NCBI GenBank assembly: GCA_964537475.1
Contig: CAZIBY010000002.1
Span: forward strand, 209,331 to 273,330
Length of the DNA stretch: 64,000 bases
Direction of reading: 5' to 3'
From: an uncultured Chitinophagaceae bacterium
GTDB taxonomy: Bacteria > Bacteroidota > Bacteroidia > Chitinophagales > LD1
Below the pieces are notes generated by a model. It was not told where the DNA came from, searched no databases, and saw nothing but the letters and a program-made list of their open reading frames with translations. Made by a program: the position numbers and the translations under genes. The first letter of the stretch is position 1; each line of letters starts with the position of its first letter. Of this stretch, positions 16,958-47,900 are shown piece by piece.

Positions 16958-17050
16958 TTCCGACCACATCACTAAACCATCCAGTTTCCTATCAATATAC
17001 CAGCTCAAAGAGCCGCGACCGTTCAGCTACAAGTCTCAAGCTGACCTAAA

Positions 17051-17079
17051 AACAAAAGGCGAACCGGAGTTCGCCTTTC
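17051..17079 (-). terminator. intrinsic terminator of tuf
   Basis: aaaggcgaac-cgga-gttcgccttt hairpin. The minus strand reads the hairpin followed by ttttgttttt. Confidence 0.65.
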
Positions 17080-17100
17080 ATTATTATGTTGATCTTGTGA

Positions 17101-18297
17101 TTACTTGATCACTTCTGTCACCTGACCTGCACCTACGGTACGGCCACCTTCACGGATCGCAAAGCGGAGACCTTTCTCCATTGCGATAGGGTAGATCAGC
17201 TTCACGTCCAGTGTTACGTTGTCACCAGGCATTACCATCTCAGTGCCAGCAGGCAGAGTGATAGTACCAGTCACGTCTGTAGTACGGAAGTAGAACTGAG
17301 GACGATACTCGTTGAAGAACGGAGTGTGACGGCCACCTTCGTCCTTGCTAAGTACGTATACTTCGCACTTGAACTCAGAGTGAGGGTTTACAGAGCCTGG
17401 CTTGCAAACAACCATACCACGCTTGATCTGCTCTTTTTCTATACCACGGAGGAGGAGACCTACGTTGTCACCAGCTTCGCCGCGATCGAGGATCTTACGG
17501 AACATTTCCACACCTGTCACAGTAGATGTGAGAGCCTTCTCACCTTCCTTCTGCAGACCGATGATTTCTACCGGATCGTTAGAGTTGATCACACCACGCT
17601 CGATACGACCTGTAGCTACTGTACCACGACCTGTGATAGAGAACACGTCTTCTACCGGCATCAGGAACGGCTGGTCTACAGCGCGAGGAGGAACCGGGAT
17701 GAAGGTATCAACAGCTTCCATCAGCTCGTCGATCTTCTTTACCCACTTTTCTTCGCCATTCAGGCCACCCAGGGCAGAGCCTTGGATCACCGGCGTCTTA
17801 TCACCTTCGAAACCGTAGAAGGTCAGGAGGTCACGGATCTCCATTTCGCCGAGCTCAAGGAACTCAGGATCTTCTACCAGGTCTACTTTATTCATGAATA
17901 CTACCAGCTTTGGCACGCCTACCTGACGGCAGAGCAGGATGTGCTCACGAGTCTGAGGCATAGGGCCGTCAGTCGCAGCTACCACCACGATAGCACCGTC
18001 CATCTGGGCGGCACCAGTTACCATGTTCTTGATATAATCGGCGTGGCCCGGGCAATCCACGTGAGCATAGTGACGGTTTGCCGTCTGGTACTCTACGTGA
18101 GCTGTGTTGATCGTGATACCACGTTCTTTTTCCTCAGGAGCGTTATCTATCGAAGAGTAGTCACGCACTTCAGCGAGGCCCTTCTTAGACAGTACAGTAG
18201 TGATCGCAGCAGTAAGGGTCGTCTTACCGTGGTCAACGTGACCGATGGTACCAATGTTTACGTGCGGCTTGTCTTTGATAAATTTCTCTTTAGCCAT
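17101..18297 (-). CDS. tuf: elongation factor Tu
   Basis: 398 aa with [18 protein letters not shown] and NKVD GTPase motifs. Unmistakable EF-Tu sequence. Confidence 0.98.
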
Positions 18298-18384: not shown

Positions 18385-18459
<75 letters not shown>

Positions 18460-18504
18460 TTTTCGCACTATCGGCACAGATCTGATCTGTGTCTCCGTTG
18501 CTAC

Positions 18505-18580
18505 TGGAGCGGGAGACGAGGTTCGAACCCGCGACCTACAGCTTGGAAGGCTGTCGCTCTACCAGCTGAGCTACTCCCGC
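18505..18580 (-). tRNA. tRNA-Gly (anticodon TCC)
   Basis: Reverse complement GCGGGAG...CTTCCAA...GGTTCGAACC...CTCCCGCTCCA. Confidence 0.9.
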
Positions 18581-18617
18581 ATACTAAGCGATGAGCGGAA
18601 GATCATTAAAAAAAGTG

Positions 18618-18700
18618 TGGGCAGGCGTGGATTCGAACCACGGAACTCCGAAGAGGACAGATTTACAGTCTGTTGTCGTTGGCCACTTGACTACCTACCC
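18618..18700 (-). tRNA. tRNA-Tyr (anticodon GTA), long variable arm
   Basis: Reverse complement GGGTAGG... with anticodon loop CTGTAAA, extra arm CCTCTTCGGAG and T-loop GGTTCGAATCC. Confidence 0.9.
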
Positions 18701-18722
18701 GTCGCCATTAAGGAGATTATAG

Positions 18723-18795
18723 AGCCGAAGGAGGGAATCGAACCCCCGACCTACTGATTACAAATCAGTAGCTCTACCAGCTGAGCTACTTCGGC
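18723..18795 (-). tRNA. tRNA-Thr (anticodon TGT)
   Basis: Reverse complement GCCGAAG... with anticodon loop TTTGTAA and T-loop GGTTCGATTCC. Confidence 0.9.
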
Positions 18796-44669: not shown

Positions 44670-46061
44670 ATGCAATATGACCTTTTAGTTTTAGGTAGTG
44701 GGCCGGGTGGCTATGTGGCAGCGATACGTGCAGCGCAGCTCGGCATGAAAGTAGGCGTGGTAGAGCGCGAAAACCTAGGCGGTATCTGCCTCAACTGGGG
44801 CTGCATCCCGACCAAGGCCCTGCTCAAGAGCGCACAGGTATTTGACTATATATCTCACGCGGCAGACTATGGTATCACTGTGGGCAATGCCAAGTCTGAC
44901 TTCCCGGCTATCATCAAGCGGAGCCGCGGGGTGGCAGAGGGCATGAGCAAGGGCATCCAGTTCCTCTTCAAGAAGAATAAGATAGAGGCCATCATGGGCA
45001 ATGGTGTGCTGAAAAAAGGCGGTAAAATAGAAGTGACAGATGCCTCCGGCAAGAAGGCAGAGCACAGCGCCAAACACATCATCATCGCCACCGGTGGCCG
45101 CAGCCGCGAGCTGCCAAACGTAAAGCAGGATGGCAAGAAGATCTTTGGCTACCGAGAGGCGATGAACCTCCCCTCTCAGCCGGCCTCTCTGGTAGTGATG
45201 GGCTCCGGCGCCATCGGTATGGAGTTTGCCTATTTCTATGCCACACTAGGTACCAAGGTGACGGTGGTAGAGTTTATGGACCGCATCCTCCCGCGCGAAG
45301 ATGAAGACGTGTCAAAGGAGATGCTGAAGATCATGAAGAAGAAAGGCATCGAGTTTATGGTAGGCACTTCTGTAGAGGCCGTAGATACCAAGGGTAAGGG
45401 CTGTATCGTTTCTACCAAAGATAAAGCCGGCGCTACCGGCAAAATAGAGTGTGACGCCGTCCTCTCTGCAGTAGGTATCTCTACCAATCTCGAAGGCATA
45501 GGCCTGGAGGAGGTAGGCATCAAGACAGACAAAGGCGTCATCATCACTGACGACTTTTACGCTACCAACGTACCTGGCTACTACGCCATCGGCGATGTGG
45601 TGAAGGGTCCTGCCCTAGCCCACGTGGCCAGCGCAGAGGGCATCACCTGCGTGGAGAAAATAGCAGGCGTCCACACCGATGCGATAGACTACAATAACAT
45701 CCCGAGCTGCACCTATACCTGGCCGGAAGTAGCCTCCGTAGGCTACACCGAGGCCGAGGCCAAAGCCAAAGGCTACGAGGTCAAGGTGGGCAAGTTCCCG
45801 TTCTCAGCCTCCGGCAAAGCCTCTGCGGCAGGTGCCAAGGACGGCTTCGTAAAAGTGATCTTTGACGCCAAATACGGTGAGTGGCTCGGCGCACACATGG
45901 TCGGCGCCAATGTGACTGAGATGATAGCCGAGGTAGTGGCTGCCCGCCGTCTCGAGACCACCGGCCACGAGATCATCAAGTCTATCCACCCGCACCCTAC
46001 CATGAGCGAGGCTGTGATGGAGGCTACCGCCGCAGCGTTTGGTGAGGTGATACATTTGTAA
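44670..46061 (+). CDS. lpdA: dihydrolipoyl dehydrogenase
   Basis: 'GSGPGGYVAAIRAAQLG', the redox-active 'GGICLNWGCIPTK' motif, and the C-terminal 'HPHPTMSE'. Confidence 0.96.
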   Translation: MQYDLLVLGSGPGGYVAAIRAAQLGMKVGVVERENLGGICLNWGCIPTKALLKSAQVFDYISHAADYGITVGNAKSDFPAIIKRSRGVAEGMSKGIQFLFKKNKIEAIMGNGVLKKGGKIEVTDASGKKAEHSAKHIIIATGGRSRELPNVKQDGKKIFGYREAMNLPSQPASLVVMGSGAIGMEFAYFYATLGTKVTVVEFMDRILPREDEDVSKEMLKIMKKKGIEFMVGTSVEAVDTKGKGCIVSTKDKAGATGKIECDAVLSAVGISTNLEGIGLEEVGIKTDKGVIITDDFYATNVPGYYAIGDVVKGPALAHVASAEGITCVEKIAGVHTDAIDYNNIPSCTYTWPEVASVGYTEAEAKAKGYEVKVGKFPFSASGKASAAGAKDGFVKVIFDAKYGEWLGAHMVGANVTEMIAEVVAARRLETTGHEIIKSIHPHPTMSEAVMEATAAAFGEVIHL

Positions 46062-46095
46062 ATTCGGAGCAAAAACCTATATTTGCGCTCCCTCT

Positions 46096-46169
<74 letters not shown>

Positions 46170-46176
46170 CGATAGA

Positions 46177-46206
46177 GAAGCCACCTTTTAGGTGGCTTTT
46201 TTGTTT
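46177..46206 (+). terminator. intrinsic terminator after the tRNA
   Basis: aagccacct-tttt-aggtggctt hairpin followed by tttttg. Confidence 0.65.
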
Positions 46207-47900
46207 TATGACACAACTCATATTGATTCTTAGAAGCAACAAGATTAAAGGTTTTTAATGCCAGTCAGAATTAAGAACGTCAGTTTGGGATCTATTACTA
46301 CATAATCCTTAATTCCTGCCACTATATTATCGGAGTCTTTAACCAAGCCGTAGTCCTTATAAATCTTAATATAATTAATTGCTGATTGCTGGCTAAATTT
46401 AAATTCATTTACTAAATCAGTAGTACGAAAGTGTGTCCGTCCTACTCTCAAAATCCTATTTGCAATTGAGATTATGTCCTCTTTCGTACCGCGTCGAGAA
46501 GGAAATATCGAATAATAGTCATAGGTTTTACAATAATTTACTTTGCCGGTAGAAACTGAATGCGAAGACAGATTCTTTCGATTAGAGTCTTCAATAGCCT
46601 GCTCGTCTAATATAATAGAAAACAAGCGTATTAAGTCTCGTGGGGATTTATAGGCCAATTCAATAAGACCATCTAAATCTTTTCCAGCTTCAAATAGTTG
46701 ATTACTGTCATAGGAGTGATTTTGAGAAAAATAATCCAAACGCTTTTTCAGAATATTTTTAATATCGTCATTAGTCCAGTTTATATCTATAGGCTTGAAC
46801 TTATCAAATCTTACACCTTTAGCATTCAATTCAATTTTCACCTCTGTCCAAATACTAAATACGAGGGAGATATTATTTAAATAAAGTAAGCTAGTATCCT
46901 TCAATATTTCTTCAGTAAAATCTACAATTTTATTAATCTTCCCCTCTAACAATTTAAATTCATCAATCTTATCCAAAAAGATTACTGTAGTTGAAAAACC
47001 TGAACGTTGAATAATCCCTACTAAATCCAATAAAATATCCTTTAAAAGATTATAATTTCCAATCAGAACTTCTTCCTTCTCCTTATCTGGTAATGATTCT
47101 AAATTGATCTGAGGTAAATAATTCTTGTAAAAATTATCATTCGGCAGTTTGGGCAGATTTAAAGTTTTTGCAACAAAATCAGATCCAAGTTCTAAGCCAA
47201 CAGAAATTGCCCAATTTATCGGTTTATTGAATAGGTAATTATATATATTCTTGAAAGCATTTCTCGTTTTATAATTAGTGACCTTATTATAAGTCTCCTC
47301 GAATTCTCTTTTACTTATTGTCGTAAAAAAGTCCCTTATGATTAGTGCCAGTTTCTCTCTATCCGCTTTGGTTAAATTCTTAATTAATTGTTTGTTTTTA
47401 AAAATGCTAGCAACATATGATTTAAGCAAACTTTTGATAATCAGATGTAAGAGATAGCGATCATTGTTTTGAAGGGGGATACTATCATAGTTATCGACAA
47501 TCACACTAAAAATATTTTCATCGCTGAGCTTCTTATGCAATTCAAAAACTAAAGCAGACTTCCCACTTCCTCGCTCACCTAATATAAAGCGGCTAGCACC
47601 TGTTTTTAAATCATTGAGTAGGGAATCAAAGTACCTTGGCTTAACATATATGTGACTCAAATATTGAGTCTCTTCTTCGGCAGAATATTTTGAGAAAGGA
47701 TGTTGGGTAAAACCCAAATTCTGGTAAAGTTCAGGCATGGCTATAGGTTTTTATGAACTTAATATTAATAAATTCATTTTATATAATTCCTCCGTTGCTG
47801 GTCACAGGCTTTCCTCCTCCATGTTTCACTTTTTTTTCGGCTAACGATATAGTAAAGAAATCCGCTTCCCTACATACTTAGAAACGACCGCTTCCGTTTT
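46207..47900. other. AT-rich mini-island inserted between tRNA(CAT) and pbpC
   Basis: Base composition and codon usage change abruptly by eye (long A/T runs, AAA/AAT/ATT-rich codons) compared with lpdA and pbpC on either side. Confidence 0.6.
46245..47738 (-). CDS. orphan P-loop NTPase (ORC/Cdc6- or STAND-like AAA-type core) with a C-terminal winged-helix-like region
   Basis: 497 aa. Walker A 'GERGSGKS'; Walker B-like 'TVIFLDKIDEF'; lid-like 'YKSPRDLIRLFSIIL'. The C-terminal 'RTTDLVNEFKFSQQSAINYIKIYKDYGLV' looks like an HTH/wHTH. Confidence 0.7.
   Translation of the reverse strand: MPELYQNLGFTQHPFSKYSAEEETQYLSHIYVKPRYFDSLLNDLKTGASRFILGERGSGKSALVFELHKKLSDENIFSVIVDNYDSIPLQNNDRYLLHLIIKSLLKSYVASIFKNKQLIKNLTKADREKLALIIRDFFTTISKREFEETYNKVTNYKTRNAFKNIYNYLFNKPINWAISVGLELGSDFVAKTLNLPKLPNDNFYKNYLPQINLESLPDKEKEEVLIGNYNLLKDILLDLVGIIQRSGFSTTVIFLDKIDEFKLLEGKINKIVDFTEEILKDTSLLYLNNISLVFSIWTEVKIELNAKGVRFDKFKPIDINWTNDDIKNILKKRLDYFSQNHSYDSNQLFEAGKDLDGLIELAYKSPRDLIRLFSIILDEQAIEDSNRKNLSSHSVSTGKVNYCKTYDYYSIFPSRRGTKEDIISIANRILRVGRTHFRTTDLVNEFKFSQQSAINYIKIYKDYGLVKDSDNIVAGIKDYVVIDPKLTFLILTGIKNL

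Follow-up and report, generated by a model that had tools for sequence, protein, structure and literature searches.

A probable single-gene anti-phage system of the DS-41 family, acquired as a minimal AT-rich cassette next to a tRNA-Met gene in a Bacteroidota chromosome

The stretch of DNA analysed here (the window) comprises 64,000 nucleotides (nt) of contig CAZIBY010000002.1 from an uncultured Chitinophagaceae bacterium, and coordinates are given in the numbering of this window; loci and protein clusters of relatives and homologs are labelled L### and P####, respectively. The subject of this study is an open reading frame (ORF) of 497 amino acids (aa) located at 46245..47738 on the minus strand, the sole gene inside an AT-rich insert. 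Judging from its sequence, this feature is very probably an anti-phage system of the DS-41 family that consists of a single gene and was acquired horizontally. It is carried by an AT-rich cassette of ~1.58 kb, which lies between lpdA and pbpC and adjoins the 3' end of a tRNA-Met gene. A preliminary description of the window, which was made from the letters alone, had presented the ORF as a lone ORC/Cdc6- or STAND-like NTPase belonging to no described family, and had considered both a defence role and a remnant of a selfish element.

The protein was compared with the family models of NCBIfam (release 20), where it matches the equivalog model NF053860 ('DS41_1_antiphage') with 423.7 bits (E=9.5e-127; the cutoff is 370 bits), the alignment covering profile positions 1-448 of 448 and residues 9-484 of the protein. 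The experimentally validated DS-41 from E. coli scores 414.7 bits on the same model, that is, below the window protein. The broader subfamily model NF047389 ('P-loop ATPase, Sll1717 family') is also matched above its cutoff (112.5 bits, cutoff 75, E=2.7e-32); a literature search for Sll1717 returned nothing. The full-length E. coli DS-41 sequence was taken from IncF conjugative plasmids and agrees at every position with the 399 residues given in the original report (PMC13092281). With BLASTP, its residues 3-485 align with residues 4-490 of the window protein (26% identity, 46% positives, E=1e-36), and both the C-terminal domain and all the signature motifs (Walker A, Walker B, R310 and P366-R367) lie within the alignment. 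Since the NF053860 score is above that of the founder and the two proteins align from end to end, membership of the DS-41 family is secure at the level that sequence can give. The ORF is intact and keeps all 22 columns that are invariant across 78 homologs. It has the features of a single-gene system, with a length of ~500 aa, no fused effector, no obligatory partner, and neighbours that differ at every homolog locus.

Other libraries were less informative. Pfam gave only borderline matches to AAA_14 and AAA_16, PHROGs only sub-threshold P-loop matches, and the best match in PADLOC-DB v2.0.0 (2023), a library that precedes DS-41, was to the P-loop only (E=0.047, 10.8 bits). Taken alone, these three libraries would have pointed to an undescribed family. 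No nuclease, TIR, protease or membrane effector domain could be recognised in the window protein with Pfam, NCBIfam, PADLOC or PHROGs. The preliminary description, which had seen neither an effector domain nor an integrase, agrees with these searches, and the motifs it quoted are present in the protein (GERGSGKS at 54-61, TVIFLDKIDEF at 250-260, SPRDLIRLF at 365-373 and the C-terminal TDLVNEF...YGLV). Its statement that no described family could be recognised has to be revised, as the protein belongs to both NF053860 (DS-41) and NF047389 (Sll1717 family). The defence role it had put forward gains support from the above-cutoff score, which places the protein in a family whose anti-phage activity has been validated by experiment (PMC13092281); indeed, the family to which the profile searches confidently assign it is one of defence, not of housekeeping.

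DS-41 is one of the 42 systems validated by DeWeirdt, Mahoney & Laub (Science 2026, PMC13092281), and consists of a single gene (clone AAA2, WP_033812887.1, 502 aa; Tables S6-S8 of that paper). For the phage tests, the gene and its own promoter were placed on a low-copy plasmid in E. coli MG1655, which is not its source strain. The efficiency of plating (EOP), expressed as -log10 EOP, was 5.3 for T4, 5.0 for Bas1, 4.7 for Candy, 3.6 for Bas63, 2.7 for Bas3, 2.5 for Bas69, 2.3 for Bas19 and 1.4 for Bas25 (PMC13092281). According to the same authors, the family reaches beyond Proteobacteria, as far as Halobacteria, and has a Cdc6-like fold (PMC13092281). In our literature search DS-41 was mentioned only by the DefensePredictor paper and its preprint, in which no mechanism is published.

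The composition of the insert sets it apart from the rest of the window. The GC content goes from 0.55-0.60 down to 0.28-0.35 across about 46200-47850, and when the 64 kb are divided into segments of 1.58 kb, the insert (31.5% GC) lies ~5.8 standard deviations below the mean (50.0%, standard deviation 3.2%) and has the lowest GC content of all segments. Its tetranucleotide distance (0.69, compared to 0.27 +/- 0.06) is also the largest in the window, and the GC content at third codon positions (GC3) of the ORF is 0.30, while it ranges from 0.63 to 0.71 for lpdA, pbpC and other neighbours. This deviation is well beyond what chance would produce. The abrupt switch to AT-rich DNA after the terminator of tRNA(CAT), which the preliminary description had read by eye, is thus seen in both the GC profile and the tetranucleotide scan.

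Metagenome contigs were scanned with PbpC, which yielded one informative close relative, L084 (contig APMI01001299.1, 252 kb). Its LpdA and PbpC are respectively 99% and 93% identical to those of the window, the synteny extends to two upstream genes and to a downstream TonB-dependent receptor, and the flanks share 81-84% DNA identity. The gap between lpdA and pbpC in L084 is 529 nt long, has a GC content of 51% and holds the tRNA, and no DS-41-like gene is found in it. L084 is a true empty site, and the insert was horizontally acquired. The relatives hence do not all carry the gene in synteny and at native composition. The empty site and the extreme composition agree with the proposal, made in the preliminary description, that a single-gene module had recently been acquired beside the tRNA 3' end. 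Reference genomes were also scanned, with LpdA as the query, but this was uninformative as an empty-site test, as the relatives returned are only 66-74% identical and have lpdA, tRNA-Met and pbpC unlinked. Exact-protein look-ups with LpdA, PbpC and the ORF returned the same species only, carrying the island, and the identical ORF protein occurs in at least two further independent metagenome runs of this species.

The alignment with L084 at base level, together with the composition, places the foreign AT-rich DNA (~1.58 kb) at about 46211..47787. The left edge (~46211) comes directly past the ...TTTTTTGTTTT tail of the tRNA terminator, which is shared with L084, so that the insert starts ~40 nt past the tRNA 3' end and immediately after the terminator; at the right edge (~47787), CCGTTGCTGGTC... 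starts aligning with L084. The insert therefore amounts to the ORF plus ~85 nt, of which ~50 nt lie on the 5' side and ~35 nt on the 3' side of the gene. Of the limits first given for the island (46207-47900), the left one is essentially exact, while the right one is ~110 nt too far, since the native sequence upstream of pbpC resumes near 47788-47851. The lone 497-aa ORF on the minus strand, with lpdA and the tRNA on one side and pbpC on the other, stands as described. The first of these flanking genes encodes a flavoprotein of the dihydrolipoyl-dehydrogenase type (Pyr_redox_2, Pyr_redox_dim) and the second a penicillin-binding protein of the PBP1C type (Transgly, Transpeptidase, BiPBP_C).

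No integrase, transposase or second ORF was found in the insert, and a search for att sites showed that the tRNA 3' end is not duplicated, the only repeats being short, AT-rich and at chance level. Of what marks a tRNA-targeting integrative island, the location at a tRNA 3' end and the absence from a relative are found here, while an integrase and attL/attR sites are not. Because it is without integrase and att repeats, the insert is not a classical tRNA-integrated island, and nothing in it suggests the remnant of a selfish element that had been considered earlier: integrase, att-like repeats and transposase are all missing and the insert barely exceeds the gene. A 12-nt direct repeat (TAAAGGTTTTTA at 46246-46257 and TATAGGTTTTTA at 47742-47753, 11 of 12 positions identical) brackets the ORF from stop to start codon; it was considered as a target-site duplication and rejected, as such a match is at chance level for AT-rich DNA. 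The AT-rich stretch at 47739..47787 (minus strand) would be the 5' leader and putative promoter of the gene, and a sigma-70-like match (GTGACC-18-TAAAAT, 47805-47776, minus strand) is present upstream of the ORF.

The native tRNA-Met (anticodon CAT) is located at 46096..46170 on the plus strand (ARAGORN; Rfam RF00005, 66 bits). It is preceded at 46072..46095 (plus strand) by a sequence which probably functions as its promoter and is of the Bacteroidota type, with a -7 box TATATTTG at 46078-46085. The matching -33 TTTG (46055-46058) lies within the last codons of lpdA, with a spacer of 19 nt. The Bacteroidota promoter consensus is TTTG/TAnnTTTG, for which a 19-nt spacing is canonical. The terminator read from the sequence at 46180..46208 (plus strand) is a hairpin, GCCACCT-TTT-AGGTGGC, followed by a T-run; this hairpin was not listed by a consensus terminator scan. 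Homology to L084 stops with the terminator T-run, and the stem of the L084 terminator differs in sequence yet still pairs.

The tRNA cassette (99 nt, including the promoter) is 98% identical to that of L084 but lies on the opposite strand (regions compared, with promoter, gene and terminator tail: 46072-46210 in the window, 6705-6570 in L084). Since the -33 TTTG lies within the end of the upstream lpdA, the inverted cassette appears to borrow its -33 element from that gene. The left arm AAAAACCTATA of a perfect 11-nt inverted repeat is found at 46071..46081 and coincides with the left breakpoint of homology of the inverted cassette, and its right arm TATAGGTTTTT at 47742..47752, 3 nt upstream of the start codon of the ORF, so that the repeat encloses both the tRNA and the DS-41-family gene. 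The right arm also resembles the promoter-proximal TATAGCTTTT of the L084 tRNA. In a shuffle test of the junction zones, which were picked after the repeat had been seen, an 11-nt match was obtained in 2 of 5,000 shuffles; over the whole region such inverted repeats are not in excess, most being at the chance level for AT-rich DNA. Apart from a promoter-like match of 10 nt, local alignment showed no significant similarity between the DNA upstream of the ORF and the intergenic region of L084. These observations are suggestive of an inversion of the segment comprising the tRNA and the DS-41-family gene after an insertion at the tRNA 3' end, although only two genomes are compared and either orientation may be ancestral.

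Two further observations concern the surroundings. In a more distant relative (L102, 2471-6290; PbpC 59% and LpdA 79% identical), lpdA and pbpC are adjacent and divergent, lie ~160 nt apart and have no tRNA between them; the comparison of the window, L084 and L102 thus gives three arrangements of the lpdA-pbpC junction in three lineages. Elsewhere in the window, the second-strongest tetranucleotide outlier (about 17000-18200, ~0.40 compared to a mean of 0.27) adjoins a cluster of four tRNAs at 18385-18795.

The structure of the protein was modelled with AlphaFold2 from the 78 homologs, with a mean predicted local distance difference test score (pLDDT) of 85.9 and a predicted template modelling score (pTM) of 0.78. 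When the model was compared with the PDB using Foldseek, ranks 1-27 were all occupied by ORC/Cdc6 proteins and the related archaeal AAA+ protein sso1545, among them Cdc6 from Pyrobaculum (1FNN, E=2.8e-7), DNA-bound Orc1/Cdc6 from Sulfolobus (2QBY) and eukaryotic ORC1, ORC4 and Cdc6; NLR resistosomes, Apaf-1, RdrA and BrxC followed with E-values of 1e-3 to 6e-3. This is in agreement with the HHpred result of the DS-41 authors (2QBY_A, residues 8-488, probability 0.996; PMC13092281), and with the ORC/Cdc6- or STAND-like NTPase with a winged-helix tail that had been proposed from the letters. At the level of sequence the relation is hardly detectable: searching the PDB with the protein or with the profile of 78 sequences gave nothing significant (ORC4 at E=0.67 with the profile), no ORC/Cdc6 Pfam family matches the window protein even at E<=10, and PF24389 (ORC-CDC6-like) matches the homologs weakly and over only the first 49 of its 571 profile positions.

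The DS-41-family gene (46245..47738, minus strand) is accordingly described here, from NF053860, BLASTP, AlphaFold2 and Foldseek, as encoding a putative ORC/Cdc6-like AAA+ ATPase with a lid and a winged helix, onto which the invariant residues can be mapped (all coordinates that follow are on the minus strand). The map of invariant columns starts with an N-terminal motif (P14-F15..S19-A-E-E-E23). The Walker A motif GERGSGKS (G54-S61, 47556..47579), in which R56, G57 and K60 are invariant in the 78 homologs, is kept in E. coli DS-41. Between strands beta2 (residues 77-81) and beta3, the model contains a helical insert of ~150 aa (residues 93-245, 47004..47462) with a net charge of +7 and a loop of lower confidence at about 193-221. 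In the model, this insert seems to occupy the position of the initiator-specific motif (ISM) of ORC/Cdc6/DnaA, which is a short helical insertion; at ~150 aa the insert has no detectable sequence similarity to it. The Walker B region T-V-I-F-L-D256-K-I-D259-E260 (46959..46988; strand 251-255) has invariant D256, D259 and E260, and its counterpart in E. coli DS-41 is LIDKLDE. An invariant arginine, R310 (46809..46811), lies in the loop between alpha4 and beta5, aligns with R307 of E. coli DS-41 and would be the arginine finger, given its AAA+ position. The lid (residues 323-404) includes a helix (366-384) which starts with the invariant P366-R367 (46638..46643; KSPRELIKL in E. coli DS-41), and R367 is a putative sensor-2-like arginine. 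An arginine finger and a sensor-2 arginine typify classical AAA+ proteins rather than STAND proteins, and these features of the model make us lean towards an initiator-type AAA+ protein. The C-terminal winged helix (residues 422-491, 46266..46475) has three helices and a beta-hairpin wing, in H-E-H-H-E-E order (H, helix; E, strand). This part was matched by small MarR/ArsR-like viral proteins in a fold search of BFVD (ranks 28, 42, 44, 46 and 48), and weakly by Sso10a and Fe_dep_repress.

A word-indexed search for homologs returned 174 sequences; those with the highest identity (55-74%) come mostly from metagenomes. Among named organisms, the nearest homologs are not from relatives of the host but from Clostridia (Pseudobacteroides cellulosolvens, 62%; Marinisporobacter, 56%), followed by Flavobacterium (45%) and Bacillus (42-43%). 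The distribution is sporadic over Clostridia, Bacilli, Bacteroidota, Enterobacteria and plasmids. An exhaustive profile search among 1.84 billion representatives gave 1,171 clusters at E<=1e-3, including 203 at E<=1e-30, and nearly all the full-length members are 485-540 aa long and carry no added domain. The exception is a set of three clusters (P0116, from L171 8001-10469, P0117 and P0124; 822-895 aa) in which an N-terminal membrane domain of the MraY/WecA type (Glycos_transf_4) is fused to a complete DS-41 module, a recurrent variant with a membrane anchor. No homolog was found in phage genomes, which is neutral with regard to a defence role, and the fold search of BFVD for viral relatives of the ATPase gave only weak matches to KAP/AAA proteins of giant viruses.

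Several homologs are located in mobile or defence contexts, an association for which the preliminary description had proposed to look. The closest homolog on a long contig (P0007, 69% identical) lies between a type I restriction-modification (R-M) operon and a GmrSD gene. P0022 has a type III-like methylase/helicase pair on one side and a PLD-SNF2-DUF3427 nuclease-helicase on the other, and P0043 is two genes away from a gene with a Shedu domain. P0008 belongs to a mobilizable element with a relaxase, a primase and a P4 cII-like gene, and P0010, present as two inverted copies, adjoins SMC/MComp1/CTD1 conflict genes, IS110 and SymE. The gene for E. coli DS-41 (L168, plasmid CP058102.1, 86180-87688) is carried by five IncF conjugative plasmids in PLSDB, where its neighbours are a 499-aa RES-family NAD+ phosphorylase, ccdAB and relE/parE. 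A megablast search with its DNA gave no match among 5,426 complete RefSeq genomes of E. coli, and it is therefore rare even in its source species. At 9 out of 9 loci (L163, L165, L166, L168-L172 and the window) the family gene is more AT-rich than its flanks, by 6-19 GC points (36% compared to 47% for the E. coli plasmid), irrespective of the GC content of the host. A conserved neighbour or partner gene was not found across the homolog loci compared.

Two loci deserve mention in their own right. In Pseudobacteroides cellulosolvens (LGTC01000001.1, ~6.79-6.81 Mb; L163/L164), identical copies of the 62% homolog form an inverted duplication around an SMC_N/MComp1/CTD1 operon, with IS110 transposases and SymE toxin genes on both sides. 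At two loci of a 490-aa, Flavobacterium-like subclade (L166, 11636-12310, and P0043), an unannotated gene of ~215-224 aa follows 90-160 nt downstream on the same strand, and could be a partner specific to the subclade or only reflect the shared ancestry of the two loci.

Some observations weigh against the identification of the feature as a working anti-phage system with an ORC/Cdc6-like architecture. The identity between the window protein and the validated E. coli DS-41 is only 26%, and the canonical Bacteroidota TAnnTTTG box was not found upstream of the ORF. The contexts look ordinary at P0058 (Flavobacterium) and at the P0116 MraY-fusion locus, as does the site in Bacillus safensis apart from an adjacent gene with an FRG domain. 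With template modelling scores (TM-scores) of 0.3-0.4, the similarity to ORC/Cdc6 proteins is coarse, although low scores are expected for a three-domain protein with a large insert and a different packing, and the shared domain order fits. The putative recognition helix is weakly basic and moderately conserved. The winged helix of STAND and ORC proteins can also be purely regulatory. Finally, the phage tests cover only the E. coli member and no Bacteroidota one (Table S7), and neither mutants nor a mechanism are given for DS-41 (PMC13092281).

As to how such a protein could stop phages, we tentatively propose an effector-less, ORC/Cdc6-like oligomeric ATP switch on DNA, which once assembled would stand in the way of phage replication or transcription. 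Such assemblies are formed on origins by ORC/Cdc6 and DnaA, and the ISM of initiator AAA+ proteins contacts DNA. By analogy, the protein would rest as an ADP-bound or empty monomer; upon infection it would bind ATP and form a head-to-tail oligomer, in which R310 would complete the active site of the neighbouring subunit in trans, and the winged helix and the basic helical insert would be its means of assembling on DNA. The nucleoprotein complex would itself be the effector, blocking the replication or transcription of the phage genome or occupying the replication machinery that the phage needs. A bolder generalisation, which we consider doubtful at present, is that DS-41 proteins as a group are effector-less 'initiator mimics' whose immunity relies on nucleoprotein occlusion, with ATP driving their assembly on the DNA of the phage or on the replication machinery it needs. 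The winged helix, the enlarged ISM-like insert and the lack of a nuclease, NADase, protease or pore may be read in this way. If true, such occlusion would set DS-41 apart from Avs, CBASS and Thoeris, which follow a sensor-plus-effector logic; natural comparators would be the Bacteroidota copy, the Clostridia-like proteins related to it and the variants fused to MraY.

Occupancy of DNA would not be needed if the protein were an NTPase of the STAND/Avs type acting as a sensor only, which would recognise a phage protein or nucleic acid, oligomerise and cause abortive infection, the killing being due to a host effector recruited in trans, to runaway ATP hydrolysis or to a toxic helical insert. Possible as it is, we hold this explanation to be on the unlikely side. 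Defence proteins of the Avs/STAND kind carry as hallmarks a C-terminal repeat sensor and an N-terminal effector domain. Neither an effector domain at the N-terminus nor a repeat sensor (TPR, LRR, WD40) at the C-terminus was found with Pfam, PADLOC or the model, while the DS-41 authors classed their protein as a remote homolog of Avs1B from AVAST type I (PMC13092281; HHblits probability 98.1, coverage 0.52), and the Foldseek matches to NLR resistosomes, Apaf-1, RdrA and BrxC point in the same direction. The protein also has weak Pfam matches to nSTAND3, NACHT and NPHP3_N, but the STAND matches remain below their gathering thresholds (nSTAND3, 15.3 bits for 27.2; NACHT, 12.5 for 26.7; nSTAND1, 11.0 for 27.1), and the invariant arginines at the arginine-finger and sensor-2 positions are those of a classical AAA+ protein. 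E. coli DS-41 acts on unrelated phage families, as pattern-recognition sensors do, and the three clusters of MraY/WecA-like fusions show that the module can couple to an added domain. A partner in trans would however have to be universally conserved, because DS-41 worked alone in MG1655 and the family spans several phyla, and no conserved neighbour was found at the homolog loci.

The horizontally acquired DS-41-family system, whichever way it acts, was also weighed against explanations in which the gene does not serve defence. The gene could be a true DS-41 homolog that is an inactive passenger, either not expressed or not functional in this host; the missing Bacteroidota-type promoter motif, a codon usage unlike that of the host (GC3 of 0.30 compared to ~0.68) and the mere ~50 nt of upstream sequence brought by the insert would fit. 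We find this improbable, given the intact 497-aa ORF with 22 of 22 family-invariant residues, the identical protein in at least two further metagenome runs, and the AT-rich upstream region with its sigma-70-like match. Less credible still is a degraded tRNA-targeting integrative element for which the ATPase would serve as a replication initiator or maintenance protein of the ORC/Cdc6 type. The location beside a tRNA 3' end, the fold, the one homolog (P0008) in a mobilizable element with primase and relaxase, and the rearranged locus with its tRNA inverted relative to L084 speak for it. The insert, extending only ~85 nt beyond the ORF, nevertheless has no integrase, transposase, att-like direct repeat or other gene of an element; the gene is intact, with every family-invariant residue present, and encodes a protein found identically in independent metagenome assemblies of the same species; its closest homolog on a long contig lies between R-M and GmrSD genes, not replication genes; and the family is defensive when cloned alone (PMC13092281). 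Equally remote is a chromosomal regulator co-opted by the host, that is, a non-initiator Orc1/Cdc6-like transcription factor similar to archaeal Orc1-2. In its favour, the window protein is built from the same three parts, namely an AAA+ core, an insert where the ISM would be and a winged helix, and there are precedents: in Sulfolobales, Orc1-2 acts as a regulator of this kind and controls the DNA-damage response (PMC9738581), and an Orc1/Cdc6-like protein takes part in a damage-signalling switch in a haloarchaeal virus (PMC10123103). A regulator is at odds with the absence of the gene from L084, where the gene order is otherwise identical, with its foreign composition, with the sporadic spread of the family over Clostridia, Bacilli, Bacteroidota, Enterobacteria and plasmids, and with a match to an anti-phage family at the equivalog level. 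On the evidence counted against each, we rejected both the degraded integrative element and a housekeeping role as initiator or regulator.

The gene in the window can be annotated as encoding a DS-41-family anti-phage protein. Read as a defence gene, it makes the island a clean case of such a gene being acquired alone, outside any defence island, which is the class that DefensePredictor was built to find. It would also indicate that the cassette bringing in a defence gene may be scarcely longer than the ORF and lack an integrase, the arrival being accompanied here by an apparent inversion of the neighbouring tRNA. The DS-41 family reaches Bacteroidota chromosomes, here with its nearest relatives in Clostridia, and its gene is consistently AT-rich. 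The map of motifs and domains, together with the MraY-fused variants, provides mutants and comparators for studying how an effector-less ORC/Cdc6-like ATPase stops phages. What is new here is modest: a chromosomal member in Bacteroidota with its empty site, arrival as a minimal cassette, the motif map, the AT-richness of the family and the MraY fusions.

In comparison with known systems, the window protein shares with BrxC/PglY (BREX) and RdrA (RADAR) the use of an ORC/Cdc6-related AAA+ module in defence, as reflected by weak Foldseek matches to 9zll_B and 8hra; BrxC has been discussed as ORC/Cdc6-like (PMC12839542). These proteins are however much larger and need partners (PglX/PglZ and the RdrB deaminase, respectively), none of which is found near DS-41-family genes at the loci compared. 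With Avs/AVAST and other STAND proteins (Avs1B, bacterial NACHT, NLR resistosomes) it has in common a P-loop NTPase, a helical domain, a winged helix and, for E. coli DS-41, a broad phage range. Those proteins are 1,000-2,000 aa long, compared to ~500 aa for the DS-41 family, which lacks a repeat sensor and an effector and has arginine-finger and sensor-2 features; the window protein is thus not an Avs/STAND protein in the defining sense. Orc1/Cdc6 (1FNN, 2QBY, 1W5S) and eukaryotic ORC1/ORC4/Cdc6 show the same domain order of AAA+ core, lid and winged helix, with arginine-finger-like and sensor-2-like arginines and extra helices between beta2 and beta3. They differ by their low similarity (~10-13% identity, TM-scores of 0.3-0.4) and by a single helix-turn in place of the ~150-aa insert, and the window protein has a conserved N-terminal NPFS..SAEEE motif and does not match the curated ORC/Cdc6 sequence models. 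In bacteria the replication initiator is DnaA. As it is not conserved in related genomes, the window protein is not a replication initiator: it resembles ORC/Cdc6 initiators but is no member of that group. Closer in function is DS-14 (clone RMOR), a validated single-gene anti-phage protein in which a PD-(D/E)xK nuclease is fused to an ORC1-like AAA+ ATPase (PMC13092281); the ORC-like AAA+ module is shared, but DS-14 (816 aa) has an N-terminal nuclease where the DS-41 family has no recognisable effector. The closest counterpart is E. coli DS-41 itself. The window copy differs from it by its 26% identity, its orphan site on a Bacteroidota chromosome (lpdA-pbpC) instead of an enterobacterial IncF plasmid, and its place in a subclade with Clostridia as the nearest named members. 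Both are nevertheless stand-alone single genes whose products (502 and 497 aa) are collinear from the N-terminus to the winged helix and share the motifs NPF..(S/T)AE.E, G.RG.GKS, (I/L)DK(I/L)DE, R.D.K and KSPR(D/E)LI, and both score above the NF053860 cutoff, are AT-rich relative to their replicon and lie in accessory DNA.

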